DNA of 64,000 nt from an uncultured Chloroflexia bacterium (GCA_963700285.1 CAVOXA010000009.1:256001-320000); one strand, 5' to 3'; counted from the first letter of the stretch, positions 1 through 18,136 are shown. Program-made: numbers and translations. Notes: generated by a model from the letters alone, not told the origin.

Positions 1-251
1 CTAGCCTTGGAGCCGATGCGGAGCGTGGCGCCTTGTCCAGCCTGATCAGGGTACGAGACCGTCACACTCTGTCCATCGACTGCATCCACATCATACCATT
101 CGTACACGGCCCTCGGCTCCCACAGTGTCTGTCCCAGGGCAATGGCCTCCTCGGCATCCTGGAGCAATTCTGGCCGGATCTGCCGTTGGCCCCGTGATTC
201 GACGATCTCTTCAGCGGCTACAGAAACCGGTACGTCGGTCAAGATTGGCAT
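1..251 (-). CDS. Partial CDS (runs off window edge), possibly a B12-dependent methionine synthase activation-domain-like protein
   Basis: Manual translation MPILTDVPVSVAAEEIVESRGQRQIRPELLQDAEEAIALGQTLWEPRAVYEWYDV...; ATG at 251 with GGAGA RBS; the 'EPRAVY' pattern recalls stand-alone MetH activation domains (family recall only). Confidence 0.5.
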   Translation of the reverse strand, partial: MPILTDVPVSVAAEEIVESRGQRQIRPELLQDAEEAIALGQTLWEPRAVYEWYDVDAVDGQSVTVSYPDQAGQGATLRIGSKA

Positions 252-426
252 CGCATCTCCCATTCTAGTTCTCTTCCACTATTTGCCAGGCATTCGCGGC
301 ATTGTACCACGCTTTTCCGCTCAGCAAAAATGTCAGGTTGGTCAAATCTGGACTACGGGTGTATAATACGGGGCCTCCCGCCCGGTTGGAGGAGCAGGAG
401 TCTGGCAACTGGAAAGGGAACCCCTG

Positions 427-1251
427 GTGGAATCAAAACCCAAGGATCTGCAGCAACCCGCACCGCGCTGGCCCAAGCTAACGGTGGTAGTCGTAGTCCT
501 GGCGGTCATGGTCATCCTGTTGGCCATCGTTCTTTCCCCTGCCTCGCTGCTGGGCAAAGCGGACCGGGTGGGCTATGCAGTCTGCCATCAGATCCCGGAG
601 CGGTCCTTTGTCCTGGCCGGGCGCCCACTGCCCCTCTGCGCGCGCTGCACCGGAACCTTTCTTGGCGCCACCCTGGGGTTGGCAGTCATGCTTCTCCTGC
701 GACGCGGGCGTGCCTCCCGCATGGCGCCTGCCTCAGTCCTGTTTGTCCTGATCCTTTTCATTGGCTTATGGGGTTTTGATGGCTTGAACTCCTACATGAC
801 GCTCTTTCCAGGCGGACCGAACCTCTACGAGCCGCAGAACTGGCTGCGGTTGACCACCGGCCTGCTCAACGGCCTGGCGCTCATCATCTTTGTCTTTCCA
901 ATATACAATTTTACGCTGTGGCGGGAGCCGACCGATGAACGGGTGATCAGGAGCATCTGGGAGTTGATGGCCATCCTACCCGTGGTCGCCCTGCTGGTTC
1001 TGGTCATCCAGGCAGAGATCGGTTTCTTGCTTTACCCCTTGGCCATCCTCAGCAGTCTGGGGGTCTTGATGCTGCTGGTACTCATCAACTCCATGCTGGC
1101 CGCCGTGATATTGGGGCGTGAGGGCTATGCCCTGACCTTTCGACAGGCCCTGGTTCCCCTCACGGTGGGGGCCGCCATGGCCATCCTGGAGATTACCGCC
1201 ATCGTTCTGTTCCGAGACTATTTGACAGCCAGGTTTGGACTGCCCTTCTGA
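427..1251 (+). CDS. DUF2085-family membrane protein
   Basis: CHQxPxRSF...PLCARCTG motif and several hydrophobic helices. Confidence 0.85.
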   Translation: MESKPKDLQQPAPRWPKLTVVVVVLAVMVILLAIVLSPASLLGKADRVGYAVCHQIPERSFVLAGRPLPLCARCTGTFLGATLGLAVMLLLRRGRASRMAPASVLFVLILFIGLWGFDGLNSYMTLFPGGPNLYEPQNWLRLTTGLLNGLALIIFVFPIYNFTLWREPTDERVIRSIWELMAILPVVALLVLVIQAEIGFLLYPLAILSSLGVLMLLVLINSMLAAVILGREGYALTFRQALVPLTVGAAMAILEITAIVLFRDYLTARFGLPF

Positions 1252-2318
1252 TCTTCTTTCCCGGTTCCGTCCCGGGAGGCTGCGAGAACGGCTCGGAAGA
1301 GGCGCGCCGGACTCTCGCGGATCCAGACAAAAGCCAACAGTGTGTCGATCAGGGTAAAGACCAGCACAAAGGCCCGCCGGCCAATGACAAAGATGGTAAA
1401 CTGGTCCAGCGAAAGACCAGCCAGGCCCAAAACAGCCGCCCAGCCCCCTTCCAGGAACCCCAGGGAGCCAGGCGTAACGGAAAAGATCAGGGCCAGTTGG
1501 GTCACACTCACCCCCATGGCCAGCAAATACCAGGGGATGTCAAGCTTCAGGGCATTGGCGATAAAGATCAGCCGCGCGGAGAGCAGGCCATACAGCAGGA
1601 TGGTCAGGAGGAAGGCCTGAATGGCCACTCGATTGGGCAGGATCCTTCTGTTGGTCACCTGATCCAGTTGCTGGGGCAACCTATGGGCGAATCTGGGGCC
1701 GATGATCGGCACCCGGGCCAGGGGATGGGCCAGGCGAGAGCCGGTCCGGCCCACCAGGCGTAGGGTCGCACCATACCGCAGGCCAATCACTATTGCCCCG
1801 ACGATCACAGTACTGGCCATGAGGACAAAGGCTACAGTCAGGCTGATCCCATTTGCCAGGAAAAGGGCCACCGGCAAGACCAGCAGCAGGGCCAGAATCA
1901 GGTCAAAGAGTTTGTCCACGAACACGGACAGGGCCGATTGACGCAGCGAGACGCTGCGCGAGAGGCTGAGGGCCACGGGACGCCCGCCCAGCATGCCCAC
2001 CGTGATGGGCAGCACCTGGCCCGTTAGCATGCCGATCATCTGATAGGTAAAGTAGTAGCGGAACGGGCAGGGCTCAGAAAAGTCGATCACCTGGTTGGCA
2101 ATGAGGGACCAACGATAGGTGGCTACCAGATTCCATAGAAGTGTAACCACAAAGGCGGCGAACACGTAGCGCCAGTCCGCCCGAACAATCACTTGCCAGG
2201 CCTCAATCCCCCCCAGGTACAGGATCAAGCCAAAGACCAGCACACCGGACAGGTTGATCACCCAGGACAGGATCCGGTTACGTTTCTGGTTCTTGGTACG
2301 TCCAGGCTTCTCGCTCAA
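1218..2318 (-). CDS. Lysylphosphatidylglycerol synthase TM-region / UPF0104 flippase-like membrane protein
   Basis: RW motif, 'VDKLFD', 'TPGSLGFLEGG'; probable TTG start at 2318 behind GAAGGGAAG; convergent overlap with the DUF2085 gene. Confidence 0.8.
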   Translation of the reverse strand: MSEKPGRTKNQKRNRILSWVINLSGVLVFGLILYLGGIEAWQVIVRADWRYVFAAFVVTLLWNLVATYRWSLIANQVIDFSEPCPFRYYFTYQMIGMLTGQVLPITVGMLGGRPVALSLSRSVSLRQSALSVFVDKLFDLILALLLVLPVALFLANGISLTVAFVLMASTVIVGAIVIGLRYGATLRLVGRTGSRLAHPLARVPIIGPRFAHRLPQQLDQVTNRRILPNRVAIQAFLLTILLYGLLSARLIFIANALKLDIPWYLLAMGVSVTQLALIFSVTPGSLGFLEGGWAAVLGLAGLSLDQFTIFVIGRRAFVLVFTLIDTLLAFVWIRESPARLFRAVLAASRDGTGKEDQKGSPNLAVK

Positions 2319-2440
2319 ATATCGCTTCCCTTCTGTTGTCAGGTAAACTGATGCAGTGTACCACAGAACCAACGATCGCGCACATTGCCATTCCGGGTTG
2401 AACATAAGGACAACCACAGTGCTGGAGTCCCACGACGCAA

Positions 2441-2469
2441 TTGACCAGCCCGACAAAGAGTGCTAGAAT
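2441..2469 (+). promoter_or_regulatory. Sigma70-type promoter of the kinase gene
   Basis: TTGACC-17 nt-TAGAAT. Confidence 0.6.
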
Positions 2470-2522
2470 TGCTCCCGTGCATATCCAGGGGAATTCGAAA
2501 AGAACGTTCTGCGAGAAGTGAC

Positions 2523-4163
2523 ATGCTCAACATCGAAGGGCAATTAGAGCAAAAGACAGCTCAGCTCGCGGCGTTGCGTGAAATAGGCCGCGCCATCAAC
2601 ACCGCCTGGGAACTGGAAACTACGCTGACCCTGATCACCCGCCGCACAGCCGATGTCATGGGCATGGACTCTTGCTCCATCTACCTGCTGAGTGATAAAG
2701 GCGAAGCGAGCGGTGAGATCCTGGTGCTCAAGGCCACCACCGGACTCGCGGCCAGTGCGGTTGGCAGGGTCTACCTGCGGCTGGGCGAGGGCCTAACGGG
2801 GTGGGCGGCACAGACCGGCCAGCCGGTTGCTGTGGCCGACGCAGCCCAGGATCCGCGTTTCCAATACCTTCCCGAGACGGAAGAAACTCGCTTCCAGTCC
2901 TTGCTGGCTGTGCCACTGGTAAACCAGGAGCGCGTGATAGGCTCCATGAACGTCCAGACGCGAGAATATCACGAATTCTCCTCCGACGAGGTGGAACTGC
3001 TCGGCCTCATTGCTGACCTGGCCGCCGGGGCGCTAGAGAAGGCAATGCTCTACGAGGGCATGCAGCGTCAGATCGGTGAACTCTCCGCCCTGGCCGAGGT
3101 GAGCGAGACGATCACCTCCCCCCGCTACCTGGACGAGATGCTGGAAGTTGTCGTCGAAATGGCCGCTCGCGTCATGAAGGCGCGTCTCTGCTCGCTGATG
3201 TTGCTAGATGAAGCCAGCGGCGAACTGATCCTGCGGGCGACTCAACCCTGGAGCATCGCCTACCGCGACAAGCCGCCCCTGCACGTCGGCGAGGGGGTCG
3301 TGGGACAAGTGGCCAAAGAAGGACAGCCAGTGGCTGTCCTCGACGTCCGCCAGGAACCCCGCTACCGCCATTCCGACATCGCCCGGCAAGAAGGGCTGTG
3401 TTCGCTACTCTGTGTCCCTCTTTCCGTCCGCGACCGGGTGATCGGCGTCATGAACTGCTATACGACCGCGCCCCACCGCTTTTCCAGCGAGGACATCTCG
3501 CTCTTTTCCACGCTGGCCAACCAGACCGCGCTGGCCATTGAAAACGCGCGCCTGGTGACCAACGCGGCCATCGTCCGCGAGATGCACCACCGCATCAAGA
3601 ACAACCTGCAGAACGTGGCCATGCTGCTCCGCCTGCAGATGAGCGCTGAGCGACCTATTTCGGCGCGAGAAGTGCTGAACGAGAGCATCAACCGTATCCT
3701 GAGCATCGCTGCCGTTCACGAGGTACTCTCTCATCGCGGCTTTCGGCTGGTAGACGTCAAGGAAGTACTGATGCGCGTGGGCCAGGCGGTGGTCCAGAAC
3801 ATGCGCCGGCCCGGCCTGGAGATCCATTTTTCTGTCGAGGGTGACGACGCCGCCCTTCCCTCTCAGGCCGCTACCTCGCTGGCCCTGGTCGTGAACGAGC
3901 TGGTTCAGAATGCCTTGGAGCACGCCTTTGTTGGCCGCTCTCAGGGTCAGGTTTCCGTTTCTCTGCAGCATTCAGGCAAAGACCTGGTCGTTGAGGTCCG
4001 GGACAATGGTATGGGCCTATCCGGCAGCCTGTCCAGTCACCTGGGATTAGAGATCGTCGAAACACTGGTTCGCGAAGACCTACATGGCGATTGGGCATTA
4101 GGTGAGGACAATGGCACCGTTGCCCGCGTGACTCTGCCCCTGGGAGAGGAATCCTCACGCTGA
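2523..4163 (+). CDS. Soluble GAF-GAF sensor histidine kinase (HisKA_2, PdtaS/EutW-like)
   Basis: Two GAF repeats (…SLLAVPL…, …SLLCVPL…), H-box EMHHRIKNNLQ, N-box NELVQNALEHAF, DNGMG; no TM helices. Confidence 0.9.
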   Translation: MLNIEGQLEQKTAQLAALREIGRAINTAWELETTLTLITRRTADVMGMDSCSIYLLSDKGEASGEILVLKATTGLAASAVGRVYLRLGEGLTGWAAQTGQPVAVADAAQDPRFQYLPETEETRFQSLLAVPLVNQERVIGSMNVQTREYHEFSSDEVELLGLIADLAAGALEKAMLYEGMQRQIGELSALAEVSETITSPRYLDEMLEVVVEMAARVMKARLCSLMLLDEASGELILRATQPWSIAYRDKPPLHVGEGVVGQVAKEGQPVAVLDVRQEPRYRHSDIARQEGLCSLLCVPLSVRDRVIGVMNCYTTAPHRFSSEDISLFSTLANQTALAIENARLVTNAAIVREMHHRIKNNLQNVAMLLRLQMSAERPISAREVLNESINRILSIAAVHEVLSHRGFRLVDVKEVLMRVGQAVVQNMRRPGLEIHFSVEGDDAALPSQAATSLALVVNELVQNALEHAFVGRSQGQVSVSLQHSGKDLVVEVRDNGMGLSGSLSSHLGLEIVETLVREDLHGDWALGEDNGTVARVTLPLGEESSR

Positions 4164-4226
4164 TGGGCGAAGGTCTCCTCCCTGATGGGCAAAGGTCTCC
4201 TCCTTGACGGGCGAAGGTCTCCGGCC
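4161..4226 (+). repeat. Three tandem 22-bp repeats
   Basis: TGATGGGCGAAGGTCTCCTCCC / TGATGGGCAAAGGTCTCCTCCT / TGACGGGCGAAGGTCTCCGGCC starting at 4161, 4183, 4205. Confidence 0.85.
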
Positions 4227-4291
4227 GAGCCCTTTTACCCACTGGGGTGAATCCTTGAACAATCCCACCATCACAAACACTTGGAGCGAAA

Positions 4292-4855
4292 ATGCGCGTA
4301 TTGATTGCCGATGACGAAGCCCTCATCCGCATGGGGCTGCGAGCCATGCTCCGAGATATGGGGCACGAGGTTGTGGGTGCCGCAGTCGACGGCCAAGACG
4401 CTCTGCGGCTTGCCTGCCAAACCTGCCCCAGCTTGGCCATTCTGGACATCAAGATGCCAGGCATGGATGGTCTGAACGTGGCAGCAGCCATTGCCCAGCG
4501 CTGCCCCTTGCCGGTCGTGATGCTGACCGCCTACAGCGAGCGCGATCTGGTCCAGAAAGCAGCAGAGACCGAAACGGTACAGGCTTACCTGGTCAAACCC
4601 ATTCGCGAAGAAGAGTTGGCCCCCGTCATCGAACTGGCTGTGGCCCGCTTTGCCGAGTGGCAGGCCCTACGGCTGGAAGCTGCCAGTCGTCAGGAGGCCC
4701 TGACAGCACGCGCCACCGTGGCTCAAGCCAAACAGATTCTCATGGATCGCGACGGGCTGACCGAGCGCCAGGCATTCCTGGAGATCCAGCACCGCGCCCG
4801 CCGCCAGCGCCAGACCATGCGCCAGGTAGCAGAGGTATTGCTGCGGGCGATTTGA
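4292..4855 (+). CDS. ANTAR-domain response regulator (PdtaR/EutV/NasT-like)
   Basis: Receiver DD, LDIKMP, MLTA, VKP; C-terminal ANTAR 'VAQAKQILMDRDGLTERQAFLEIQHRARRQRQTMRQVAE'. Confidence 0.93.
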   Translation: MRVLIADDEALIRMGLRAMLRDMGHEVVGAAVDGQDALRLACQTCPSLAILDIKMPGMDGLNVAAAIAQRCPLPVVMLTAYSERDLVQKAAETETVQAYLVKPIREEELAPVIELAVARFAEWQALRLEAASRQEALTARATVAQAKQILMDRDGLTERQAFLEIQHRARRQRQTMRQVAEVLLRAI

Positions 4856-4880
4856 CATTACCCCGATCCTGTGATATAGT
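4852..4880 (+). promoter_or_regulatory. Sigma70 promoter of the glutamate-synthase-like operon
   Basis: TTGACA-17 nt-TATAGT; the -35 overlaps the regulator's stop codon. Confidence 0.8.
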
Positions 4881-4892
4881 CTTGCCAGAACG

Positions 4893-4952
4893 GTGAGCCG
4901 CGCCATGGCGTGGTTCACAAGAACAAGCAAAGCATTGGGGCCGTGAAGCCCT
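4893..4952 (+). promoter_or_regulatory. Putative ANTAR-target dual stem-loop RNA leader
   Basis: P1 GTGAGCCGCGC-CATG-GCGTGGTTCAC (alternative register CGC-CATGGC-GTG hexaloop); P2 GGGGC-CGTGAA-GCCCT; both hexaloops have G at position 4; P2 overlaps the terminator 5' arm. Confidence 0.7.
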
Positions 4953-4996
4953 TGGTGCTGAACCAGCCTGGTTCAGCGCCAAGGGCTTTATTTTTT
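4946..4996 (+). terminator. Intrinsic terminator inside the leader
   Basis: AAGCCCTTGGTGCTGAACCAG...CTGGTTCAGCGCCAAGGGCTT (~20-bp stem) followed by TATTTTTT, ~25 nt upstream of the start codon. Confidence 0.88.
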
Positions 4997-5020
4997 CAGC
5001 CACGATCCAGGAGAGAGTTG

Positions 5021-7543
5021 ATGACCGGGCGCTATCATATTCACACCAAGCCAGCTCCACCAGACTTCACCTACCCAGCCAAGTTCCGGCTGGGCGAAGG
5101 CGACGATTACGTCAAGTATGGCCATGCCCCCTTTGAGCAAGGTCGCCGCGGGGGCGATCCACACTGGACGGCCGAGGTTATCAGCCAGACTTGGTATCAA
5201 GCCGAGACGGGTCGTATTCCCATCTCCGGCGCGGGCTACGGGGGTGCTTTTTCCGGCCCCGGATTCGACGGCATCTGGCTTGACATGTCCGAGATCGTCC
5301 GCCCTACCCGCGACGGGATCCACGGGCGCGAGTATATCTCCACGACAGTGGTCCTCGGACAGCGGCCGGCCGGCCTTTGCTTCGACGCGACGGGTCAACT
5401 GGTCTCGCAGATTCCACCGCAGGTCGAGATCCCCATCCCCACAATATTTGACCCGCTTCCGGTGCCGCTACCGGGAGACGGCGCCCAGTTGGCCGTGGTC
5501 CGCGCAGCTGCTCAGTTGGGGACACTGGCCCTGGTCCGGACCGAAGAATGGATCGACGGGCTCCAGGGCTATGCCGAGGCCATCGTGCCCCTGCTTACCC
5601 TCGATGACGATCCCAGGGCAGAGCGGCTGCGGGCGGCGCGAATGATCGAGATCGACGCCGAGTTTGATGAGAATATGGATGCGGTACTGGCATTGGCGCG
5701 CCAGATCCGGGCAGACTATCCAGCGACAGTGGTCGCCGTGCGGCTGGCTCTGGGTCCCGAAAGCCCGGCACAGGTGGAGGACTTGGCTGCCGGCGGTGTT
5801 GGGGTGGTCCACCTCTGCGCCGACGAGGGCGGCTATGAGCAGAGAGGTGACGCTCCGCGCTTTCTGTCCGATGCGCTGCAGGACGTCCACCAAGAGCTGG
5901 TGGAAGCAGGCCTGCGCGACCAGGTAACGCTGGTCGTGGGCGGTGGCATCGCTGCCGCTGAGCACGTGCCCAAGGCACTGGTCTGTGGCGCCGACGCTGT
6001 GGCCGTGGACTTTGCCCTGCAGGTCGCGCTGGGCTGTGCGTTGTGGGCCGATGTTCGGCGTCCTTGCCCGGTCGAGGACGCAGAAACCAACGTCGAGTTC
6101 GGTACCCAACGCATCGTGAATCTGATGGCTGCCTGGCGCGACCAGCTTCTGGAGGTACTGGGCGCCATGGGCATGCGCGAGGTCCGCCGTTTGCGGGGTG
6201 AGTTGGGCCGGACCATTTTCCAGAATGGGGAAGAGGAGGAATTCCGCAGCCTTTTTGGACACACAATCGCCGGGCACCCAGAGGCGGCGCCCCCTGAACC
6301 AGGCGATGGCGAGTTGGAAGGCGACCTGCGCTGGCCGACGCCCCTCATCTTGAGCACTGCGGAGCAGGGACGTACCGGACGGCCACCGGTCGCAGGGCTA
6401 GAGTGCCACGTGGGCCGCTCCGGCGGCGGCTTTGACCGCCTCCGCTTTCCTTTCGAACTGGAAAGCGACCGGAGCCTCAAGCCCGAAGCCCGAGTTGCCG
6501 GACTGCCTGGCCAGCAGTTTCCTTCTCTCGCCCTTGACCTGAACCGTCGCGATGCCACCCGCCCCCGCATCCAGATCCCCCATCCCTGGTACGGCGCGGG
6601 GATGTCCTTTGGCTCAGTCAGCGTGCAGACCATGCTCGCCCGCGCCTGGGCGGCAAAGTACTGGGATTCATTTACCTGCACCGGCGAGGGCGGCTATCCC
6701 GACGAGCTGATTCCCTACGCCGATCACATCATCACCCAGGTGGCCACCGGCTTGTTTGGCGTGCGCGAGGAAACGATCCAGCGGGCGCGCATCGTCGAGT
6801 TCAAGTACGCCCAGGGCGCCAAGCCCGGCCTGGGCGGCCACCTGCTGGGCAGCAAAGTCACCCCGGCCGTGGCTGCCCATGCGCGAAGCGGTAGTGGGCA
6901 CCAGCCTCTTTTCGCCCTTCCCCTTCCACAGCGTCTATTCCGTGGAGGACCACAAGAAACACGTGGACTGGATCAAGACCATCAATCCCCTTGCTCTGAT
7001 CTCGGTCAAGGTATCCACCCCCACCGACGTGGACATGGTGGCCGTCGGCAGCTACTATGCCGGGGCGCACATCGTCCATCTGGACGGCGCCTACGGAGGG
7101 ACTGGAGCCGCGCCGGAGATTGCCAAAAAGAACATCGCCATGCCCCTGGAGTACGCCATCCCCAAGGTACACCGCTTTCTCGAAGAAGAGGGCATCCGCG
7201 ACGAGATTGTGCTCATGGCTTCTGGCGGTGTACGCACGGCCTATGACATCGCCAAGGCCATCGCCCTGGGCGCTGACGGCTGCGTCATCGGTACCGCGGA
7301 TCTCATTCGCCCTGGGCTGCGTCCGCCTGGGCACCTGCGAGCGAGAGAACGGCTGCCCCTTTGGCATCACCACCACCGATCCCGAACTGGCCAAGCAGGT
7401 AGATCCCATGGAAGGCGGGCACCGGATCGCCAATCTATACACATCGTGGCGCATCACAGATCGCAGATATCCTACAGAGGCTTGGGTTGCCGAGCACACG
7501 CGACCTGCGGGGAAGGACCGATCTGCTGGTCTATCTTGCATAG
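5021..7543 (+). CDS. Glutamate synthase-related protein with two tandem FMN-binding (GltB2/GlxD-like) domains; frameshifted in this sequence
   Basis: RBS GGAGAGAG then ATG 5021. Domain 1: 'GGGIAAAEHVPKALVCGADAV', 'QLLEVLGAMG'. Domain 2: 'GMSFGSVS', 'TGEGG', 'QVATGLFGV', 'KYAQGAKPGLGGHL', 'DGAYGGTGA', 'CVRLGTCERENGCPFGITT'. Frame changes near 6878, 7305, 7460; ends ...LRGRTDLLVYLA* at 7543. Confidence 0.82.
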
Positions 7544-7613
7544 GAATCTGAGATTGCATGACGCAACACGCCTGGCATCATGTATAGGAAAACGCTGACT
7601 CGGAGCTGAAACC

Positions 7614-10288
7614 ATGAACCCACTCACAATCGCCGATCGCATCATTGCTTCGCGCCGGAGCCTGGTGTATGGGCGTCCTGCGCCGCCCATACACAAAGCC
7701 ACTGCAAGAAGGAGGCTGTGGCGTTGTTGGGCTGGCCGCCTCGGTGCCGGTGGCAGGCCGGCACCTGATGGCCCCTGCACGACAGATGCACAACCGGGGC
7801 AACGGCAAAGGGGGCGGCATCGCTGCCGCCGGGCTGTCCCCTGCACAGATGCGCGTCTCACCGGAGACGCTCCAGGCATGCCACGCTGCTCCAGGTTGCC
7901 TACCTGGATCCTCGATGCTCGCGCCGAGGTCGAGCAAAGCGCCATCCTGCCAGACCTGTGATGTACTGCAGGCCTACGCCGTACCCACGCTGGACGACCA
8001 CCGCGATGTGCCGGGGCTGGAGGTCAGGCCTCCGGATGTGTGGCGCTACTTTGTCCGGGCCAAGCCCGGCGCACTGGATCGCTTTCGCCGACGAGCATGA
8101 CCTGGAGGCTCTGGCGGCCCGACAGGTCGAGGACGAGTTCGTCTACCGCAACAGCTTCCAGCTCAACCAACGCTTCTACGCCAGCCTGGGCGAACAGCGG
8201 GCCTTTGTCCTCTCCCACGGGCGGGACCTGCTGGTCTTCAAGATCGTCGGCTATGCCGAGCAGGCGGCAGCCTACTACCTGCTGGAGGACCTGAAGGCCC
8301 ACGTCTGGATCGCCCACCAGCGCTACCCCACCAAGGGACGGGTCTGGCATCCGGGCGGCGCACACCCGTTCATCGGCCTGAACGAGGCACTGGTACACAA
8401 CGGCGACTTTGCCAACTATCACGCCGTTGGCGACCTACCTGCGACAGCGAAACATCGCCCCGCTGTTCCTGACCGATACCGAGGTCAGCGTGCTGCTCTT
8501 TGACCTGCTGGACCGCGTCTACGGCTACCCGCTGGAAGCCACCATCGAGGCGCTGGCGCCCACCACAGAGCGCGACTTTGAACTGCTGCCCCCAGAGAAG
8601 CAACGCCTCTACCAGGCGGTTCAGGCAACGCACCTGCACGCCTCGCCCGATGGGCCTTGGTTCTTTATCATCGCCCGCAGCCAGCCCGACGACCAGCAGT
8701 GGCAGTTGCTGGGCATCACCGACACCTCCATGCTGCGGCCTCAGGTCTTTGCCCTCCACGAAGGCAAGGTCCAGATCGGTCTCATCGCCTCTGAAAAGCA
8801 GGCCATCGACGCCGCCCTGGAGAGCCTGGCCGCCGAGGATGAGCGGATCTGTCCCGTGGCCGATCGCTACTGGAATGCGCGAGGCGGAAGCCACACCGAC
8901 GGCGGCGCCTTTCTGTTCACTGTCAGGCAGACTGCCCCGCGTCAGGCCGCTCAGAATGGGCGCGGACGAGAATTGATTGTGACCGACAAGTTCGGGGAGG
9001 AGGTCACGACACCGCTGGACCAGATCCACAACAATCCCAGTACCGCGACGCTGTACCCTCCCGTTCTGACTTGGACCGCGGGGGCACAATTCTTGACGGG
9101 CGGCCAGGAGCCCTCCAGTTGGGTCGTGGCTGGCCCCGAGGGAATTGCCGCCGCCTGGCATTGGCTGTGCCTGGAGATCCAGGCATGGGACTATGGTCAA
9201 TTGACCTGGTTCTGCGAGCGAATGGTAGCGCTGGCGTCCACCACTGCGGCACCACTGAACGGTGAGACCTGGGGATTTGTCGTGGGCCTGCTCACCCGGC
9301 TACGGGATCGGTCAGTACGATCCCGGTGCAAAGCGACGGGCCTCGATCCTGGCTATGGTGGACCGTACCCTCAGGTCCATCTTTGACACCGTGCCATTGC
9401 TGGCGGCCAGTGGTACAAGCCCTCTGCGACGTGTGAACTGGGAGACACGGGTCACGCTACGCGGGCCGCGTGATGCCGAGACGGTATTGGTACTAGATGC
9501 CTCCCGCTACCCGCCCGAGGGGGATGATTCGGCGGCCAGACTCATCGTCACAGCAGCCAGTTTGGGCTGGCGGCGCCTGGTCACCTACAATTGGCGGGGC
9601 GGACGTTTTTGCGGCTGCGGGCTGGGTCCGGGAAGCGAAGGGGTACGCATCGACGTCTATGGTTCCAGTGGCGACTACTTGGGCTCCGGTCTGCAGGGAG
9701 CCGAGGTCCACGTCCATGGCAGCGCCCAGGATCAGGTCGGCCAGATCCTCAAGGTCGGCAAGCTGGTGATCCATGGGGACGTGGGACAGACCTTCATGTA
9801 CGGAGCCAAGGGTGGGGAGGCCTACGTGCTGGGCAATGCAGCCGGCCGGCCGCTGATCAACGCTGCCGGCTGTCCCCGGGTGGTGATCAATGGTACCTGC
9901 CTCGACTATCTGGCCGAGTCATTCATGGCTGGCAGACCCGCTCAACGGCGGCGGCTTTGTCGTCCTCAATGGCATGGCCTTTGACGCCCACGGACAGATG
10001 GTAGCCCAGCGGACGCCCTATCCTGGCGGGAACCTCTTTTCACTGGCTTCGGGCGGGGCCATTTATCTCCGAGATCCCTACCACATGGTGGTTGAGGACC
10101 AACTCAATGGAGGAGCCTTCACACCCATGACTGAGGCCGACTGGAACTTGATGGTGCCCTACCTTGAGGAGAACGAGCGCCTGTTCGGGATCGCGGTAGA
10201 GTCGCTACTTACGGTGACAGGCAAGATTAGACGGCCGGAGGAGGTCTATCGCAAGGTAGCAGCCGTACAGTTGGAGGCTCTTGCATAG
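7614..10288 (+). CDS. Glutamate synthase-related protein: class-II glutamine amidotransferase domain fused to a GXGXG (GltB C-terminal) domain; frameshifted
   Basis: EGG|CGVVG Ntn nucleophile, 'MHNRGNGKGGG', 'AHQRYPT', 'GAHPF', 'VHNGD', 'TDTE', 'LRP'; C-terminal GSSGDYLGSG/GDVGQTFMYGAKGG beta-helix repeats; reconstructed from about 7 overlapping ORFs. Confidence 0.82.
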
Positions 10289-10485
10289 ACCACAGGGTAC
10301 CATGGGCTCACGCCCACCTTGGCTGGAAGCTCCCATCCGCTTGTGGTCGGGTTTCTACCTTCCAACAACAGCCCTTCAAGCGCAGCTACACGAATGGGCA
10401 TTGTGCCCGGGGTACGACCCCCATGCTTTCACGAGCTATTATGGGAAGGGATGGCCTGCAGAATGCCGCACTGGCACACTTTTGG

Positions 10486-10950
10486 TCAGACCGAGTTGGA
10501 AAACGGCCGCAGATGGTAATGGGTCCCCGTGATATATCGCTCCAACTGCTCGATCATGAACTCTTGATGGGATATGATGGCCTTGACCACATCCCCGATA
10601 GAGATCACGCCGACCACCTGATCATCTTCCAGCACGGGAAGATGGCGCACGCGCTTATCGGTCATCAGGGCCATGCACTCCTCGGTGCTCTGCTCGGGGC
10701 TCACATAGACCACCCTTTCAGTCATGATCTCCCCAACCCAGGTATCTTTAGCCGACTTGCCCTGGAGGGTGACCTTGCGAGCATAGTCCCGCTCCGACAA
10801 GATGCCCCCCAGACGGTCCCCATCCATGACCAGCACCGCCCCGATGTTCTTATCTGCCATCAATTGGAGCGCATCGTAAACTGGAACATCGCACCCAATT
10901 GACCAGACCTCGTGGCCCTTGTTCCGCAACATTTCCCTAACTGTAGTCAT
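10486..10950 (-). CDS. CBS-domain pair protein
   Basis: 'GILSERDYARKV', 'RHLPV', 'VISIGDVVK'; ATG 10950 behind GGAGGAGG. Confidence 0.92.
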   Translation of the reverse strand: MTTVREMLRNKGHEVWSIGCDVPVYDALQLMADKNIGAVLVMDGDRLGGILSERDYARKVTLQGKSAKDTWVGEIMTERVVYVSPEQSTEECMALMTDKRVRHLPVLEDDQVVGVISIGDVVKAIISHQEFMIEQLERYITGTHYHLRPFSNSV

Positions 10951-11143
10951 TGTTGGCCTCCTCCTTCCGCCAGCGATCTCGGGCGCCATTATAGCACAAG
11001 ATCTGGCCTGGCGTCAACCGCCGGGTTCAAGGCATGGTGGCTGGTGGCCCGAGTCTGACCGCCAAGTCTATGACCCTTTCTGGGCTGCTGCATCAACGGC
11101 CGGCGCACGCACGGCTGGGTCGCGCAACAGAGCTACTGCTCAA

Positions 11144-11180
11144 TAGAACATTTGAGCGGAAACGCCTTCTGTGGTACAAT
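11144..11180 (+). promoter_or_regulatory. Promoter overlapped by a LexA/SOS-box-like site
   Basis: TAGAACATTTGAGC overlapping TTGAGC-17 nt-TACAAT, 8 nt before ATG 11189. Confidence 0.5.
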
Positions 11181-11188
11181 GGTCCCCG

Positions 11189-13672
11189 ATGGACACAGCC
11201 ACCTTTCTCAAGCAGATCAAGAACCTGCCCGGCTACCGGGACCAGGTCGTCCACGTCGAGCGGCTGCCCGCCCGCCGGGCGCGCTACGGCAAGCTGGACC
11301 GGCCCCTGCCGCCGGCCCTGGAGGCGGCCCTGCGCGGCATCGGCGCCGAGCAGCTCTATACGCCACCAGGCCCAGGCCATCAACGCCGTCCGCGCCGGGC
11401 CAGCACGTCATCCTGTCCACCGGCACGGCCAGCGGCAAGACCCTGGCCTACAACCTCCCGGTCCTGGAGGCCCTCCTCGCCGACTCCCGGGCCCGGGCCC
11501 TGTACCTCTTTCCCACCAAGGCCCTGGCCCAGGACCAACTCCGCGGCCTGCGCGAACTGGCCCAGGGCGAGCGGCCTGCGGGCAGCAAGCGCTTTGGCAC
11601 CTACGACGGCGACACACCCCAGGGCGCCCGCGCCCGCCTGCGCCGCGAGGCGCAGCATCCTGCTCACCAACCCCGACATGCTCCACCTGGGCATCCTGCC
11701 CAACCACACCCTGTGGGCCGACTTTTTCGCCAACCTGCGCTTCGTCGTCCTCGACGAGGCCCACGTCTACCGGGGCGTGTTTGGCTCCCACGTGGGCTGC
11801 GTGCTGCGGCGGCTGTGGCGGGTCTGCGCCCGCTACGGCGCGGCGCCCCAGATCATCGCCTGCTCGGCCACCATCGCCAACCCCGGCGAGCACCTGCAGC
11901 CGCCTGACCGGCGTCGAGCCGGTGGTCGTGGACGACGACGGCGCGCCCCGCGGCGCCCGCGACTTTGTCCTCTGGAATCCGCCCTTTGTGGACCAGGCCC
12001 AGACCGCCGCGGCGCAGCGCCAACATCGAGGCGGCGCGCCTCTTTGCCCGACTGGTGCAGGCCGGCATCCGCACCATCACCTTTACCCGCGCCCGCCGCG
12101 TGGCCGAGCTGATCCTGCTCTACGCCCGCCGCATCCTGGAGGACGACGCTCCAGGCTCTGGCGCGACCGGGTGCGCGCCTACCGCGCCGGCTACCGCCCC
12201 GAGCAGCGCCGCGAGATCGAGCGCGGCCTGCGCCCCGGCGGCGACCTGCTGGGCGTGACCGCCACCTCGGCCCTGGAGCTGGGCATCGACATCGGCGACC
12301 TGGACGCCTCGGTGCTGGTCGGCTATCCGGGCACCATCGCCAGCCTGTGGCAGCAGGCCGGGCGGGCCGGGACGGGGCACGCGCCGCGCCCTGTCGGTGC
12401 TCATCGCCCTGGACAACCCGCTGGACCAGTACTTCATGCGCCATCCCCGGGACCTGTTTGGCCGGCCCCACGAGCACGCGCTCATCGACCCCTCCAATCC
12501 CTACATCCTGGAGCAGCACCTGCCCTGCGCCGCCCACGAGATTCCCGCTGTCGCGGGGCTCGGAGGAGGAGGGCAGACCTATGCGACGCCCTCCGCTGCC
12601 CGCTCGCGCACCGCGCCGGGCGCTGCCGGGCCGTCGCCGGCGAACAGCCCCCGGCCGCAGCCCAGCCAGCGGCAGCACCCACGCCCAAGCCGCCGCTGCC
12701 CCCTGGCCTGGCCCAGGGCGACGACGAGGCGCTCTTCGGCGCCGGGTTCGTGCCGGCCATGATCGCCCTGGAAGAAAGCGGGCGAGCTGGAGTACCGTCG
12801 GGGCGAGGGTCGGACCGCTGGTACCCCCGGCCCGGCGCCTATCCGGCCCAGAAGGTCTCGCTGCGGGCCCTGGCCGGCTCGCGGGTGGCGCTGCTCAACG
12901 CCGCCGCAGACTACCGCCTGCTGGAAGAGATCGAGGGCACCATCGGCCCTGTACCGCGTCCACCCCGGCGCCATCTATCTCCACCAGGGCGAGTCGTTCC
13001 TGGTGCGCGAGCTGGACCTGGACGCCGGGCACGCCATCCTCGAGCCGGTGCAGGTGAACTACTACACCCAGCCCCGCGAGATCAACGACGTGCGCATCCT
13101 GCGTTCGGTGGCCCACAAGCAGGTCGGCGCGGCGACGGCGCACCTGGGCGAGGTGCGGGTCACGCAGCAGGTGATCGGCTACCGGCGGGTGCAGCAGTTC
13201 CGCGAGGAGGTGCTGGGCGTGGAGGATCTGGACCTGCCGGCCCAGACCTTTGACACGGTGGCCCTGTGGTGGGAGGTGCCGCCGGACATCCTGGCCCAGG
13301 TGCAGCGGCGGCGGACTCGATCCGGCCGGCGGGCTGCACGCCGTGGAGCACGCGGCCATCGGCCTGCTGCCGCTGTTTGCCATGTGCGACCGCTGGGACA
13401 TCGGCGGGCTGTCGACGCCGCACCATCCCGACACCGGCACGGCGCTGGTCTTCATCTACGACGCCTTTCCGGGCGGCGTGGGCATCGCCGAGAAGGGATT
13501 CGACCTGCTGGCGGAGCTGTGGCGCGCGACCTACGAGGCGGTCCGCGACTGCCCCTGCGAGGATGGGCTGTCCGAGCTGTATCCAGAGCCCCAAGTGCGG
13601 CAACAACAACGAGCCGCTGGACAAAGCAGGCGGCGCGTCCTGATCCTGGCCGATCTGCTGAGGGGTACTTGA
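11189..13672 (+). CDS. DEAD/DEAH-box helicase with C-terminal DUF1998 Zn domain (MrfA/Hrq1/SftH family); heavily frameshifted
   Basis: [49 protein letters not shown], 'YDAFPGGVG', CPC...[19 protein letters not shown] spread over several frames. Confidence 0.9.
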
Positions 13673-13913
13673 CTCCTGTCCTTCTGCTGGGTTTTGATTT
13701 GCTTGTGACGCTACCTTCGCACAGTTGGCGGATACACGCTTTGGCGTCCATCAGCGCCTGACCTTCCGCCAGCAATTCTAAATCTGTTGTTGGAACTTTA
13801 CTCGCTTTGCCATCTGGCCCCTCCGATCTCGCGCGATCACGACCAAGCCATTCCCCCACCATACATACGCTATCTCCCTTCGTTGAGAATTGCTGGAGCG
13901 CTTCCCTCTAGAA

Positions 13914-13942
13914 TTGACTCCTAGGCGCTTTTGCGATAGAAT
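13914..13942 (+). promoter_or_regulatory. Sigma70 promoter
   Basis: TTGACT-17 nt-TAGAAT. Confidence 0.6.
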
Positions 13943-14088
13943 CGCTTTTTACCCCTTTTGTGCTGGTGCTTGTGTGCTCTTTCACCGGGGCTGATCAGTG
14001 TTTTGATCTGGTACGGCATGGCAAAACCTGCGGAACGTGGGAGTCAGGCCTTCTGGTCGGGGCTGATCCAGGAGGAGGGAGGAACAAG

Positions 14089-14430
14089 ATGGCAAGTGAT
14101 ACGGAACTGCATCTGATCCAGCGCGCTCGGGCACTCGTAGACGAAGGCTTCTATGTGAACAACCTGCGCGACGTGGTCGACCTGTACCGGGAACCATCCC
14201 TTGTGACCAGGTGGCCCACGGCCCTTTTTGTGTTGCGGACGATCACGCTGAATATCATCTACGAATGGGACAAACAGCCCGTTGTTTCTGCTGATGCGGA
14301 CAGGGTTCGCGCTCAACTGCAGCCCCTGTTCCGCCAGGTCTTGGACCTACTGGCCAGCGACGCAGACGCCGCGCAGGTTTATGCCGCGCTGGACGACCTT
14401 GTGCTGGCCTGGACAGAACTCAGCATCTAG
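14089..14430 (+). CDS. Hypothetical helical protein (113 aa)
   Basis: Very strong [15 protein letters not shown] before ATG 14089; upstream promoter; no recognised motif. Confidence 0.7.
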   Translation: MASDTELHLIQRARALVDEGFYVNNLRDVVDLYREPSLVTRWPTALFVLRTITLNIIYEWDKQPVVSADADRVRAQLQPLFRQVLDLLASDADAAQVYAALDDLVLAWTELSI

Positions 14431-14488
14431 GGCTTCCCTGGCGACCCATTCGATCGCAGTTGGTCCTGAACTAGGGCGGGCCCAGTTT

Positions 14489-14528
14489 GTAGTGCGCGCT
14501 TCAGCGCGCTTCTACGGCGCTGAAGCAT
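14489..14528 (+). repeat. GTAG-type REP palindrome
   Basis: GTAGTGCGCGCTTCAGCGCGCTT, recurring at ~48807. Confidence 0.7.
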
Positions 14529-14603
14529 CTCCTGAGCATAGTCAAAGGCACCCCCAAGAGCGCCCACTGCGAAACAGGTTGTCTTATTAGGACCTGTTCT
14601 TTA

Positions 14604-16049
14604 TCACTGCTCCTGAACCCGATCAGGGCGCACGATCGGCGGCCTGGTCTTCCAGAAGCCTGTCGCCTGCTCAAAGGCGTGGGCTAGCTGGAGCACGCCC
14701 CAGTCATCGTGGTGCCGGCCCACGATCTGCAGACCCACCGGAAGACCCCCTTCCGTGAAGCCACAGGGTACCGAGATGGCGGGCAACCCCAAGACGCTGA
14801 TATAGTAGCAGGACTTCATCCAGTCGATATAAGTCGCCATTTCAACGCCGTTGACCTCAGTCACGTAAGGTTGGGTGACGTCAAAGGGCGGTACCTGGCT
14901 CACGGGGAAGACCATGAACTCGTACTCTTCCATGAACTGCCGGGTGCGCTGGTATAGTTCCGTGTGCTTGCGCTCCGCACGGCCGATCTGGGGGCCCGTC
15001 AGTTTTTTCCCCTCCTCGATGTTCCAGACAATGGTGTCCTTTATCTGCCCAGGGTGGCTGTCCAACAGATCTCCATAGGACAGCTCAAACTGCCAGGCTC
15101 GGAGGACTTTGAAGGCTTTGTCTGCTCCGGCGAAATCAGGCTGGGTTCGGTCGACCCGGCAGCCCAGTTCATCGAAAACCCCGCGCTGGTCCTCCAGCAC
15201 GGCTGTGACCCGTGGGTCGACGGGCAGCCCTCCGAAGTCTGGGCTCCACGCAATCTGAACACCGTGGAAATCGCGATCCAGCGGTCGCCGGAACCCCTCA
15301 CCTGATTCAGCGATGGAGATCGGGGAGCGTGGATCGGGTCCGGCCATGGCGCTGATCAGGAGGGCCGCGTCGCCCACGGTACGGGCCATCGGCCCTTGCA
15401 CGCCCAACGTTGTCCAAGCAGCCAGGCTTGGCCACGAGGGTACGCGGCCGGGAGACGGTCGGAAGCCGACCACATTGCAATAGTTGGCCGGGTTGCGCAG
15501 GGAGCCGCCCATGTCGCTGCCGTCGGCGATGGGGATCAGGCCGCAGGCCAGGGCCACTGCTGCCCCGCCGCTGCTGCCACCACAGGTCTTGGACAGGTCG
15601 TAGGGGTTTCTGGTAACGCCAAAGACCTCGTTGTAGGTCTGGGACCCCGCGCCAAACTCGGGCGTGTTGGTCTTGCCGATGGTCAGCGCCCCGGCCGCCC
15701 TGAGGCGTTCGACGATGAGGGCATCTTCCTCCGGGACAAAATCGGCAAAGATGGGTGATCCGAAGGTCGTCCGGATCCCTTTTGTGGGGATGAGATCCTT
15801 GTGCGCGATAGGCAGGCCATGCAGCGGTCCCAGGGGCTCGCCAAGCGCCACAGCCTGGTCCGCTCGATCTGCTGATTCTATGGCGTGCTCTGGCAGCAGT
15901 GTCACGATGGCATTAACCTCAGGGTTGTAGCGCTCGATCTGCTCGAGGTGCGCAACCATGACCTCGCGCGCGGACAACTCCCTCTTACTAATGGCTTGAA
16001 CCAAGTCCCGGGCGGTCATGAAGCAGATTTCCGAATTGGACACAGTCAT
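14604..16049 (-). CDS. Amidase-signature family amidase
   Basis: HGLPIAHKD, GKTNTPEF, GGSSGG, GSDMGGSLRNPA. Confidence 0.95.
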   Translation of the reverse strand: MTVSNSEICFMTARDLVQAISKRELSAREVMVAHLEQIERYNPEVNAIVTLLPEHAIESADRADQAVALGEPLGPLHGLPIAHKDLIPTKGIRTTFGSPIFADFVPEEDALIVERLRAAGALTIGKTNTPEFGAGSQTYNEVFGVTRNPYDLSKTCGGSSGGAAVALACGLIPIADGSDMGGSLRNPANYCNVVGFRPSPGRVPSWPSLAAWTTLGVQGPMARTVGDAALLISAMAGPDPRSPISIAESGEGFRRPLDRDFHGVQIAWSPDFGGLPVDPRVTAVLEDQRGVFDELGCRVDRTQPDFAGADKAFKVLRAWQFELSYGDLLDSHPGQIKDTIVWNIEEGKKLTGPQIGRAERKHTELYQRTRQFMEEYEFMVFPVSQVPPFDVTQPYVTEVNGVEMATYIDWMKSCYYISVLGLPAISVPCGFTEGGLPVGLQIVGRHHDDWGVLQLAHAFEQATGFWKTRPPIVRPDRVQEQ

Positions 16050-16173
16050 CCTCCTTCAGGCTAGAGATGATCCTGCCACGGCTTCCCTCTGGATGTTATA
16101 GCACATTCCCGGGCACAGTTCAAGTCTCAAGGGCGTTGGAACGTTAAAACGCTGAACCAGAGGGAGAGTCATC

Positions 16174-16237
16174 TTGACAACATCGGGCAGACTGGTGTAT
16201 CATTTCGATTAGTGGAATACAATTCCACTATCCGGAA
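16174..16237 (+). promoter_or_regulatory. Promoter and tandem IclR-type operator
   Basis: TTGACA-18 nt-TATCAT; perfect palindrome TAGTGGAAT-ACA-ATTCCACTA (16210-16230) formed by two 15-bp sites TTTCGATTAGTGGAA and TTCCACTATCCGGAA. Confidence 0.7.
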
Positions 16238-16295
16238 CGATTTTCGCCCAGATTCTTGTGGCGCCATGTCCTGATTCTGTCCTGGGAGTGCTACC

Positions 16296-17078
16296 GTGCT
16301 CAATGCCTCGTCGGTGGCAGCCGTTGATAGATTGGTGAGAATACTGGATAGCTTTTCGGCAGAGCAGCCGGGATGGTCCCTGGCGGAGCTCAGCGCCCAC
16401 CTGCAGTTGCCAAAAAGCACGCTTCACCGCTTCCTGGTAAGTCTTGAGACCCACGACATCCTGCGTAGGAACCCCGATGACAGGCTCTGGCGCCCCGGCT
16501 ACAGGCTATTGGGCTGGGGCGAGTTGGCGGAAAAGACCATCGGCCTGAATCATCTGGCCCGGCCACTGATGAGCGAGATCGCCGCCGCCACGGGAGAAAT
16601 GGTCGTGTTGACGGTTTACTCTGGACAAGAGGCGGTCTGTACCGAAGTGATCGATGCTCGCCACTCCGTCCGGCTGGCCTTAGAGGTTGGGACGCGGCGA
16701 CCCCTCCACGCCGGCGCATCCTCCAAAATCCTCACAGCCTACCTTCCTGAGGCCGAGGTCCAGGCTGCCATCCGAGATCGGGGCCTGCCCAGGCTATGCA
16801 CCAACACCATCACAGATCTGGAGGATCTGCAGGCCGAGCTGGCGAGGATCCGCGATCTGGGGTACGCCCAGAGCCTGGAAGAAACGGACCCGGGCGCTTG
16901 GGGCATTGCTACGCCCATCTTTGACGGTGGGGGCGCTATGGTTGGCGCCATCGGAATTGCCGGACCGATCCAGCGCTATACCGAGGATCTGGCGCGGCAG
17001 TACGTTGCCCTCTGCCGGGAAGCTTGTCAGCAGGTTTCGGAACAACTTGGCGTGCGACCAGCCCCTGACGCGTCCTGA
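16296..17078 (+). CDS. IclR-family transcriptional regulator
   Basis: HTH 'LAELSAHLQLPKSTLHRFL'; 'PLHAGASSK', 'TNTITD', 'GYA..EE', 'GIATPIFD'. Confidence 0.95.
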   Translation: MLNASSVAAVDRLVRILDSFSAEQPGWSLAELSAHLQLPKSTLHRFLVSLETHDILRRNPDDRLWRPGYRLLGWGELAEKTIGLNHLARPLMSEIAAATGEMVVLTVYSGQEAVCTEVIDARHSVRLALEVGTRRPLHAGASSKILTAYLPEAEVQAAIRDRGLPRLCTNTITDLEDLQAELARIRDLGYAQSLEETDPGAWGIATPIFDGGGAMVGAIGIAGPIQRYTEDLARQYVALCREACQQVSEQLGVRPAPDAS

Positions 17079-17171
17079 TCTCGGTGGTTTGTGTGTATGA
17101 GATAGCTGGGGTACAGACAAAAAACACCAGATCCCAGATCTGGTACAAGCAGAACAGATGGAGGGACAGAT

Positions 17172-18101: not shown

Positions 18102-18136
18102 AGCTGCAAGGATGATCAGCTTTTTGGAGTGCGTAC

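Follow-up and report, generated by a model that had tools for sequence, protein, structure and literature searches.

In a 64,000-nt window from an uncultured Chloroflexia bacterium, the leader of a glutamate-synthase-like (glt-like) operon carries a conserved hairpin with a C1/G4 hexaloop that overlaps an intrinsic terminator, downstream of genes for a GAF-GAF histidine kinase and an ANTAR response regulator with Arg in place of the Met plug of EutV. From the sequence comparisons described below, we consider it quite probable that this is a one-hairpin attenuator, likely read by the adjoining Arg-plug ANTAR protein, that turns on the operon under nitrogen shortage. The original prediction of an ANTAR-type attenuator paired with a GAF kinase, probably a soluble one, is upheld, as P2, terminator, kinase, and regulator are all present, but the complete dual-hairpin switch it described is not, as only the second hairpin, P2, is conserved.

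P2 (4937..4952, + strand) has the predicted sequence GGGGC-CGUGAA-GCCCU, with five pairs (-7.2 kcal/mol), a C-G closing pair, and a loop at 4942-4947 bearing C1, G4, and A5. The terminator (4945..4996, + strand), supported by folding and covariation, comprises a 20-pair stem (4945-4989), in line with the roughly 20 bp anticipated, and a U-tract, and the 3' half of P2 doubles as its 5' arm. The two structures were expected to be incompatible, and co-transcriptional folding indeed shows mutual exclusion: P2 has a probability of 0.98 in transcripts ending at 4952-4980 and of 0.00 from 4988, where the terminator reaches 1.0. The P2 state is 9.1 kcal/mol costlier than the terminator state.

Exact GGGCCGYGAAGCCC over a terminator is found in all 12 family leaders, which were picked by downstream gene and not by motif, and C1 and G4 are each present in 12/12 of them. 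The P2 consensus from 46 aligned sites is GGC-CNNGAM-GCC, where GGC/GCC occurs in 46/46 and the inner three pairs are invariant, both partly by selection; slid controls reach a comparable covariation score, and two-sided support for P2 comes only from the outer pair (nine A-U) and two GAGC/GCUC sites. In the terminator, 15/19 pairs are changed on both sides among the 46 sites and 0/500 shuffles reach the covariation score. The terminator pair formed by loop position 6 changes from A-U to C-G in 6/46 sites, while C1 is unpaired in the P2 fold and in the terminator fold alike.

Such a conserved 14-mer might also be recognized by some other factor that binds RNA or DNA, or might form a GNRA-like fold at the foot of an ordinary terminator. 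The near-invariant stem does exceed what the backbone contacts of EutV would need, the GYGA in the loop of family f1 fits a GNRA tetraloop, and no Rfam family was matched (three chance-level matches in window positions 1-20000, none at the gathering threshold). Nevertheless, the GNRA reading is broken because loop positions 2-3 are free to vary between families, and the six-nucleotide loop with a C-G closing pair, G4, and overlap with the terminator 5' arm are hallmarks of the ANTAR dual-hexaloop class, of which P2 lacks A1 and the upstream P1 hexaloop. The element also tracks Arg-type ANTARs in its distribution and is even found 5' of the regulator gene itself (locus L349), which makes a site unrelated to ANTAR proteins very improbable.

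Upstream of P2, the predicted promoter of the attenuated operon (4852..4880, + strand, TTGACA-17-TATAGT) is borne out by 11/12 consensus positions and an extended -10, in a scan that found 3 sites vs 0.9 expected. Its -35 box overlaps the regulator stop codon, and a comparable promoter lies 5' of the element in 49/53 homologous leaders. The whole leader folds with z = -5.9, and 0/200 shuffles are equally stable.

The hairpin that follows (4893..4918, + strand) is the P1 of the original prediction, which assigned it a CATGGC hexaloop (4904-4909). It folds instead into a perfect 11-bp stem capped by a CAUG tetraloop (-18.2 kcal/mol, P=0.99), and in the 12 family leaders it varies, bearing a tetraloop or a pentaloop, or is missing; P1 as a hexaloop was rejected in view of this tetraloop and its lack of conservation in relatives. 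In a canonical two-hairpin switch, the protein would have to rearrange the 5' hairpin so that it presents a CAUGGC hexaloop (P1), which recruitment would need. A CGC-CAUGGC-GUG register can be drawn, and EutV does need both hairpins in vivo, A1 mutations lowering induction and binding (PMC3369931, PMC8934654). Moreover, a strict P1 candidate occurs in 10/49 leaders vs 2.9 expected from mononucleotide shuffles, and could therefore serve some leaders as an optional helper. However, the register demands a 2-nt bulge, reaches -6.6 to -8.0, about 10 kcal/mol below the stability of the tetraloop, and has a closing-pair probability of 0.000; 39/49 leaders have no strict P1, in 11/49 the -10 box is separated from P2 by 30 nt or less, and one relative (L253) has a glt-like operon controlled without any 5' hairpin. 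A switch depending on two hairpins is thus very unlikely.

The C letters themselves are real. Sequencing error at C1 was ruled out by short-read contigs of runs X1 and X2 (same study, close strain), which have C and no other letter at 4904 and 4942, and another genome (G001) has both C's at the equivalent positions. The claim that both loops begin with C1 holds for P2, with its conserved C1/G4, but not for P1, which forms no hexaloop.

The regulator (4292..4855, + strand) belongs to an Arg-plug clade of REC-ANTAR response regulators, as assigned from Pfam, alignment to EutV and Rv1626, a model, and a tree. The receiver residues D8, E9, D52, T79, and K102 are all present, followed by the ANTAR domain (PF03861), and the protein aligns without gaps to EutV (6wsh/6ww6) and Rv1626 (1s8n), its predicted structure (pLDDT 92.7) giving Foldseek TM values of 0.77-0.81 to EutV. 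The residues R140, K147, E158, and F162 are equivalent to the EutV G4 contacts R142, K149, E160, and Y164, while R170 takes the place of Met172, the plug inside the hexaloop. This plug residue is Arg in 41/43 clade members vs 0/61 other REC-ANTARs, of which 59 have Met. The clade (SH-aLRT 93, quick tree, unstarred) also keeps the phospho-acceptor residues and the G4 contacts (R in 42/43, K or R in 43/43, E in 43/43). The lineage-specific ANTAR code suggested originally therefore has a correlate on the protein side: Arg170 probably lets the protein tolerate or favor a C1 loop, and may strengthen binding so far that no recruitment hairpin is needed.

Because an HMM built from only the ANTAR domain failed to tell the clades apart, the kinase was used as a proxy for the regulator clade. 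Matches to the element model were found in 44/73 kinase-positive vs 30/316 kinase-negative genomes (29/73 kinase-positive genomes having none), or in 23/52 vs 23/309 when training genomes were left out, a table that overstates the association because kin genomes are not independent. When 27 of the 30 kinase-negative matches were searched for ANTARs, an Arg-plug protein was present in 17/27. The element co-occurs with the Arg type over three protein architectures and many families, and the Arg-type gene is often directly upstream of it (G383, G288, G347, G365, G401, G335).

It is conceivable that the element is an ANTAR attenuator in which C1 merely reflects lineage drift, Arg being incidental and the reader being a Met-plug PdtaR-like paralogue or any ANTAR. 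EutV makes no contact to A1 (PMC8934654), and the conservation of A1 and G4 in actinobacterial targets is given only as 'more than 50%' (PMC8164766). Met-plug ANTARs occur in nearly all genomes checked, including the host genome with its PdtaR-like paralogue pair at G000:C10:701 kb, and in five genomes with an intact C1 site, mostly fragmented assemblies, no Arg-type ANTAR was found (G040, G145, G202, G298, G318). Position 1 is A, G, U, or C in similar GGC-N6-GCC hairpins before ilvB and gltB. Against drift, lineages with only the Met type found have another base in place of C1 or have lost it: family f22 has the same hairpin before gltB with U1 or G1 (two genomes tested), and the nadE site of G160 has neither C1 nor G4. 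Together with the strong co-occurrence and adjacency of Arg-type genes, this makes drift an unlikely explanation, and we favor reading of C1 by the Arg-plug protein.

The predicted role in nitrogen control is supported across the class, which is Anaerolineae by titled matches. In 401 scanned class genomes, GGC-CNNGAM-GCC precedes amt, glnA, GSIII, PII, nadE, LysE, and glt-like genes. With loop positions 1-3 left free, the pattern matches in 101/401 genomes, 59/112 examined matches pass the terminator filter, and C1 is found in 19/19 filtered sites before amt, PII, glnA, nadE, or a glt-like gene. Among 22 further sites that the model search placed in front of amt, GS, or glt-like genes, C1 is present in 20, the model having been trained on C1; two A1 sites before amt are among the model matches. 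An A1 site before amt occurs in G321, where only an Arg-type ANTAR was found. Judging from these sites, the preference for C1 is strong, though not absolute. The glnA leaders of kinase-positive genomes contain the element in 1/15 cases. Clostridial NitR is linked to glnA-gltAB.

Outside the class, 149 genomes of the phylum gave two weak full-length matches, both without the C1/G4 loop; kinases from these genomes are longer, at 31-40% identity, and the ANTARs have Met in 6/7 (five genomes tested). A metagenome pattern scan gave mostly chance matches, with a terminator arm in only 7/121. A contig scan for regulator relatives returned mostly distant regulators. In the host genome, there are two copies of the exact 14-mer (0.33 expected), one of them accompanied by a terminator, and 14 sites have one mismatch. 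The model search of this genome returned only the known site and its reverse strand, the motif is absent from the glnA, ilvB, thrC, and nadE leaders, and a loose hexaloop-plus-terminator scan yielded 32 candidates, none convincing. Queries for amt, PII, gltB, LysE, and GSIII found no match in this assembly (89% complete). The genome scan proposed for further sites revealed no genome-wide regulon in the host.

The kinase (2523..4163, + strand, 546 aa) has the architecture GAF-GAF-HisKA_2-HATPase_c, Pfam confirming both this protein and the ANTAR regulator as predicted. A candidate sigma-70-like promoter for the kinase-regulator genes lies at 2441..2469 (+ strand), as a consensus match only (10/12, extended -10). 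The HisKA_2 domain with its phospho-His motif and HATPase_c are both present (Pfam, alignment), and the EMHHRIKNNLQ motif is kept in 28 orthologues. EutW is likewise a HisKA_2-type kinase. Residues 30-541 lie mostly under Pfam domains, with no membrane family among the Pfam matches. The closest solved GAFs to GAF1 (about residues 12-175) include those of PtsP/EI-Ntr (3ci6, 3trc; E about 1e-22). Single-GAF kinases have kept GAF1 (52-55% identity), and the GAF part of 234-aa GAF-ANTAR fusions is 56% identical to GAF1 vs 33% to GAF2; GAF1 is thus likely the sensor domain.

The attenuated operon includes two glt-like genes, both on the + strand. Gene 1 (5021..7551; Pfam, mapping) encodes a glutamate-synthase-like protein of about 843 aa in relatives with two Glu_synthase FMN-type stretches, and is split into four frame segments in the assembly. 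Gene 2 (7614..10288; about 888 aa in relatives), split into six, maps to an intact protein (L496) and has a possible amidotransferase-like part, seen as weak glmS/purF similarity of one fragment, and a GXGXG domain. These frame breaks are most likely assembly errors, because short-read contigs are without one base at 11 places that coincide with them; pseudogenes were accordingly rejected in favor of likely assembly insertions.

We propose the following mechanism. GAF1 would respond to the nitrogen status of the cytoplasm, most likely to glutamine (inhibiting) versus 2-oxoglutarate, like the PtsP GAF. The kinase would then phosphorylate Asp52, and the regulator would dimerize as EutV does. The dimer would catch P2 in the roughly 30 nt between its folding at 4952 and the appearance of the terminator 3' arm (4982-4988), with loop G4 stacking on Phe162. 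The leftover upper stem of the terminator would stop about 7 nt before the U-tract, and the polymerase would therefore read through.

This system offers natural test pairs, having one hairpin, C1, and Arg at the residue that plugs the loop in EutV, while genomes that carry it also encode a Met-type paralogue, and the R/M by C1/A1 contrast bears on whether ANTAR proteins own a specificity code. For Anaerolineae, it further supplies a specific nitrogen regulon, of a kind that dual-hairpin A1 search models overlook, along with a candidate nitrogen sensor. A broader hypothesis, which we put forward tentatively, is that Anaerolineae use an orthogonal ANTAR code, with an Arg plug and tight C1 reading for which one hairpin is enough, that in this way two or three ANTAR paralogues in one cell run separate regulons, and that a PtsP-like glutamine/2-oxoglutarate GAF, found in two-GAF and one-GAF kinases and in GAF-ANTAR fusions, feeds what is a main nitrogen circuit of this large, mostly uncultured class.

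Among known systems, EutW/EutV, which acts on eut leaders in Enterococcus faecalis (PMC3369931; 6WW6, PMC8934654), has the same plan of a soluble kinase and a REC-ANTAR regulator. It shares the C-G closed hexaloop with G4 over a terminator, and the equivalents of R142, K149, E160, and aromatic 164 are kept here. In contrast, our system has one hairpin instead of two, C1 instead of A1, Arg for Met172 (together with the equivalents of K143A, K147Q, N173R, and R177T), a GAF-GAF sensor, and nitrogen assimilation targets. EutV binds single hexaloops (PMC8934654). Binding was abolished in EutV M172A (PMC8934654); with the A1 and dual-hairpin requirements of EutV, an Arg-plug protein on one hairpin is therefore without tested precedent in the papers examined. 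ANTAR antitermination as published depends on two A1/G4 hairpins, and the EutV structure paper left unsettled the reason for A1 conservation and the action of single hexaloops in vivo (PMC8934654).

The solved protein closest in sequence to the regulator is Rv1626 (1s8n), the PdtaR of the Mycobacterium tuberculosis PdtaS/PdtaR system (E 5.5e-46, about 49% identity), which differs in its Met plug and RMDL motif. For the sensor, the best named structural relatives are the PtsP/enzyme I-Ntr GAFs; that of PtsP is needed for control by glutamine and 2-oxoglutarate (PMC13104625), and the GAF here, whose ligand may be similar, is instead fused to a histidine kinase or straight to an ANTAR domain.

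Searches of a largely open-access literature found no paper dealing with a C1 loop, an Arg-plug ANTAR, or an ANTAR target from Chloroflexota, and seven supplement files of PMC3369931 list nothing under Anaerolinea, Chloroflex-, Caldilinea, or Dehalococcoides. A dual-hairpin A1/G4 model has predicted ANTAR nitrogen regulons in Firmicutes and other bacteria, with sites upstream of genes for glutamine synthetase (25 mentions), ammonium transporters (18), and glutamate synthase (PMC3369931, section 10, supplement file 6). In Geobacter sulfurreducens, GnfK/GnfR controls nifH, glnK, and amtB by kinase-activated ANTAR antitermination, for which a single conserved site at the base of the terminator was described (PMC2995071), but with an A1 loop (CAGGCAANGGCGCC), a GnfK without sensor domain, and sigma-54 promoters, unlike the system described here. 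All of these comparisons suggest a variant of already known ANTAR nitrogen control, whose new features would be the single hairpin, C1, and the Arg plug.

The kinase (GAF-GAF-HisKA_2-HATPase, 546 aa, 2523-4163) and the regulator (REC-ANTAR, 187 aa, 4292-4855) of the original prediction were both recovered by Pfam. Between their genes lies a 22-bp tandem repeat (4160-4222, 2.9 copies, 90% identity). The titled relatives of the regulator belong to the Anaerolineae (66% identity in one search, 67-77% in another), so this class is most likely the origin of the window, as judged from sequence. The leader contains, as proposed, a promoter (4852-4880), which is near-consensus, the hexaloop hairpin P2 (4937-4952, by folding), and a terminator with a 20-pair stem and a U-tract (4945-4996, by terminator search and folding). 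It folds with a z of -5.9 and matches no Rfam family. Folding of growing transcripts also bears out the proposed exclusion between P2 and the terminator, P2 having a computed probability of 0.98 in transcripts ending at 4952-4980 and being lost when the terminator 3' arm is transcribed; the computed energy gap between the two states is 9.1 kcal/mol. The two predicted loop-initial C's, checked for an A at position 1, are C in short-read contigs (two runs, one study).

In relatives, two long genes follow the promoter: one encodes ~843 aa and has two stretches of Glu_synthase type, and the other encodes ~888 aa and includes a GXGXG domain. The window copies are broken into four and six frame segments, respectively. 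Because contigs from two sequencing runs (X1 and X2) have one base fewer at 11 places coinciding with these breaks, assembly errors most likely account for the breaks, and the glutamate synthase-like (glt-like) operon itself is most likely unbroken. A helicase-like region (11034-13761, named from translations) is likewise split into several frames, as would be expected if single-base errors are frequent in the assembly.

The upstream hairpin P1 did not hold up as a CAUGGC hexaloop: its predicted fold is an 11-bp stem without mismatches, capped by a CAUG tetraloop (-18.2 kcal/mol), versus -6.6 to -8.0 kcal/mol and a probability of 0.000 for the hexaloop register. The leaders of relatives were chosen by downstream gene, the first glt-like gene being searched in the 23 genomes of the family and found in 12. 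All 12 leaders share GGGCCGYGAAGCCC over the terminator and a sigma-70-like promoter, and both the element (P2 plus overlapping terminator) and the promoter are also kept where the regulator gene sits elsewhere (G005, G017, G018). The 5' hairpin varies in sequence and loop size among the 12 and is absent from one (L253). A promoter is present in 49 leaders; in 11 of these, 30 nt or less separate the -10 box from P2, and 39 have no strict P1; the other 10, one of them a tandem attenuator, compare with 2.9 expected from a simple shuffle. This excess would favor the dual-hairpin switch originally proposed, which we nevertheless consider quite unlikely given the variable 5' hairpin. The conserved unit, on these alignments, is one hairpin. 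Two tandem C1 hairpin-terminator units occur ahead of amt genes at five loci (L261, L462, L522, L546, L577), which suggests tighter or two-step control there.

A pattern search that left loop positions 1-3 unspecified gave matches in 101 of the 401 class genomes, and a reversed-pattern control gave ~40 matches (hand count). We examined 112 matches, leaving out six known beforehand as well as an unpublished genome, and 59 passed a terminator filter. C1 is found in all 19 filtered sites upstream of amt, PII, glnA, nadE or a glt-like gene (named by annotation search and printed N-termini). Further C1 sites lie upstream of genes for ABC and amino-acid permeases, of lpdA and of the ANTAR gene, and family f10 has AGGC-CNNGAC-GCCU ahead of a LysE gene. 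Two f10 loci (L557, L585) carry a C1 element ahead of genes for multi-GAF proteins, and the regulon may reach further signalling proteins in this family. Across 46 aligned sites, terminator covariation is strong, with two-sided changes in 15 of 19 pairs; the inner three pairs of P2 are invariant, hence giving no covariation evidence, and its outer pair is G-C in 25, A-U in 9, G-U in 1 and unpaired in 11.

A covariance model of the element, run on 389 class genomes, gave new matches ahead of amt (often tandem), glutamine synthetase (GS) I, GS III, glt-like, LysE and permease genes. The 22 new amt, GS and glt-like sites comprise 20 with C1 and 2 with A1, the model favoring C1 by training. GAGC/GCUC in two sites is a two-sided change in P2, and a mismatch or a U-G closing pair is seen in several new sites. 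No convincing element was found in 149 genomes of the phylum outside the class, and pattern, model and gene-leader searches of the window's genome return this single site.

The regulator aligns to EutV without gaps: R142, K149, E160 and Y164 correspond to R140, K147, E158 and F162, and the plug residue Met172 to Arg170. A quick tree of 104 REC-ANTARs, taken from retrieved loci, groups 43 in a single branch (SH-aLRT 93), and the plug is Arg in 41 of these versus none of the 61 others (59 Met, 2 Gln). A third type with Gln at the plug is sister to the Arg clade in this tree (L406, L477, L589, L591, L592, L594, L614, L615). The kinase is present in 79 of 401 class genomes; the unpublished genome G357 is counted only in this tally and that of the 101 pattern-matched genomes. 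Full-length model matches (E up to 1e-3) occur in 44/73 kinase-positive versus 30/316 kinase-negative genomes, and in 23/52 versus 23/309 without training genomes, both comparisons being inflated by relatedness. ANTARs were searched in 27 of the 30 kinase-negative genomes with a match: 17 have the Arg type, either beside a kinase with one GAF domain or within a 234-aa GAF-ANTAR fusion, the sites of 5 are degenerate, and in 5 with an intact C1 site (G040, G145, G202, G298, G318) the Arg type was not found. That the element is not an ANTAR target we regard as very improbable beside the co-occurrence.

The lineage-specific loop code of the original prediction stands in part. The Arg plug, the U1 or G1 of the gltB leaders of family f22 (only Met type in the two genomes tested) and the decayed loop of G160, where only the Met type was found, count for it, whereas G321, where only the Arg type was found yet the site is A1, counts against a strict code. 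Reading by a paralogue, or the lack of any code, would suit this exception and the five genomes with an intact C1 site, and is unlikely given the plug distribution. A second ANTAR system of the window's genome is a PdtaS/PdtaR-type pair whose regulator carries a Met plug (G000:C10:700-702 kb, L003; frame-broken in the assembly), and no target of this pair was identified. The glnA leader of the same genome (G000:C15:245.9-246.0 kb) combines a promoter with a long hairpin, which an A1/G4 hexaloop (GGC-ACGGGG-GUU) overlaps, but lacks a U-tract; the Met-type paralogue may target it. GGC-hexaloop-GCC hairpins with G4 also occur at the base of terminators upstream of ilvB (L271, L288, L328, L337, L368, L467), gltB (L319, L321-L323) and thrC (L273), and across this set loop position 1 may be any of the four bases; these are possibly Met-type paralogue targets or parts of amino-acid attenuators.

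GAF1 of the kinase is nearest to PtsP (EI-Ntr) GAF structures (E ~1e-22), and the PtsP GAF is reported to be required for glutamine inhibition and 2-oxoglutarate stimulation (PMC13104625). It is the domain retained in single-GAF kinases (52-55% identity), and the GAF of the GAF-ANTAR fusions is 56% identical to GAF1 versus 33% to GAF2. These one-component fusions (~234 aa, Arg plug) occur in families f39 and f60 (L411:1483-2187, minus strand; L595-L599), in genomes with C1 sites upstream of GS, amt and permeases. Since GAF1 is PtsP-like and retained in the variants, and the target genes concern nitrogen, the sequences point to sensing of glutamine or 2-oxoglutarate via GAF1. Under nitrogen shortage the kinase would phosphorylate Asp52 of the regulator, whose dimer would bind P2 ahead of synthesis of the terminator 3' arm, and polymerase would continue into the glt-like genes; under ample nitrogen the terminator would fold. 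We consider this mechanism, as a whole, quite probable.

That ANTAR proteins control glnA, amt and glutamate synthase has already been published as a prediction (PMC3369931), and such control is described as demonstrated for nifH with GnfR (PMC2995071). A literature search of titles and listings turned up nothing on loops with C1, ANTARs with an Arg plug or ANTAR targets in Chloroflexota. In EutV, G4 is reported to stack on Tyr164 with A1 uncontacted, and M172A to abolish binding (PMC8934654); in vivo, the two hairpins and the A1 base are all important (PMC3369931, PMC8934654). NasR is reported to bind a single hairpin about tenfold more weakly, with SELEX selecting A1/G4 (PMC7496416), and actinobacterial targets are described as looser (PMC8164766). 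Dual hairpins are the only kind of ANTAR target in the accessible part of a 2025 review (PMC12591593). The window element differs from this dual-hexaloop family in two defining features, A1 and P1, and its regulator differs from the known readers of such RNAs in the Met plug. From its sequence, the element nonetheless appears to work like an ANTAR antiterminator.
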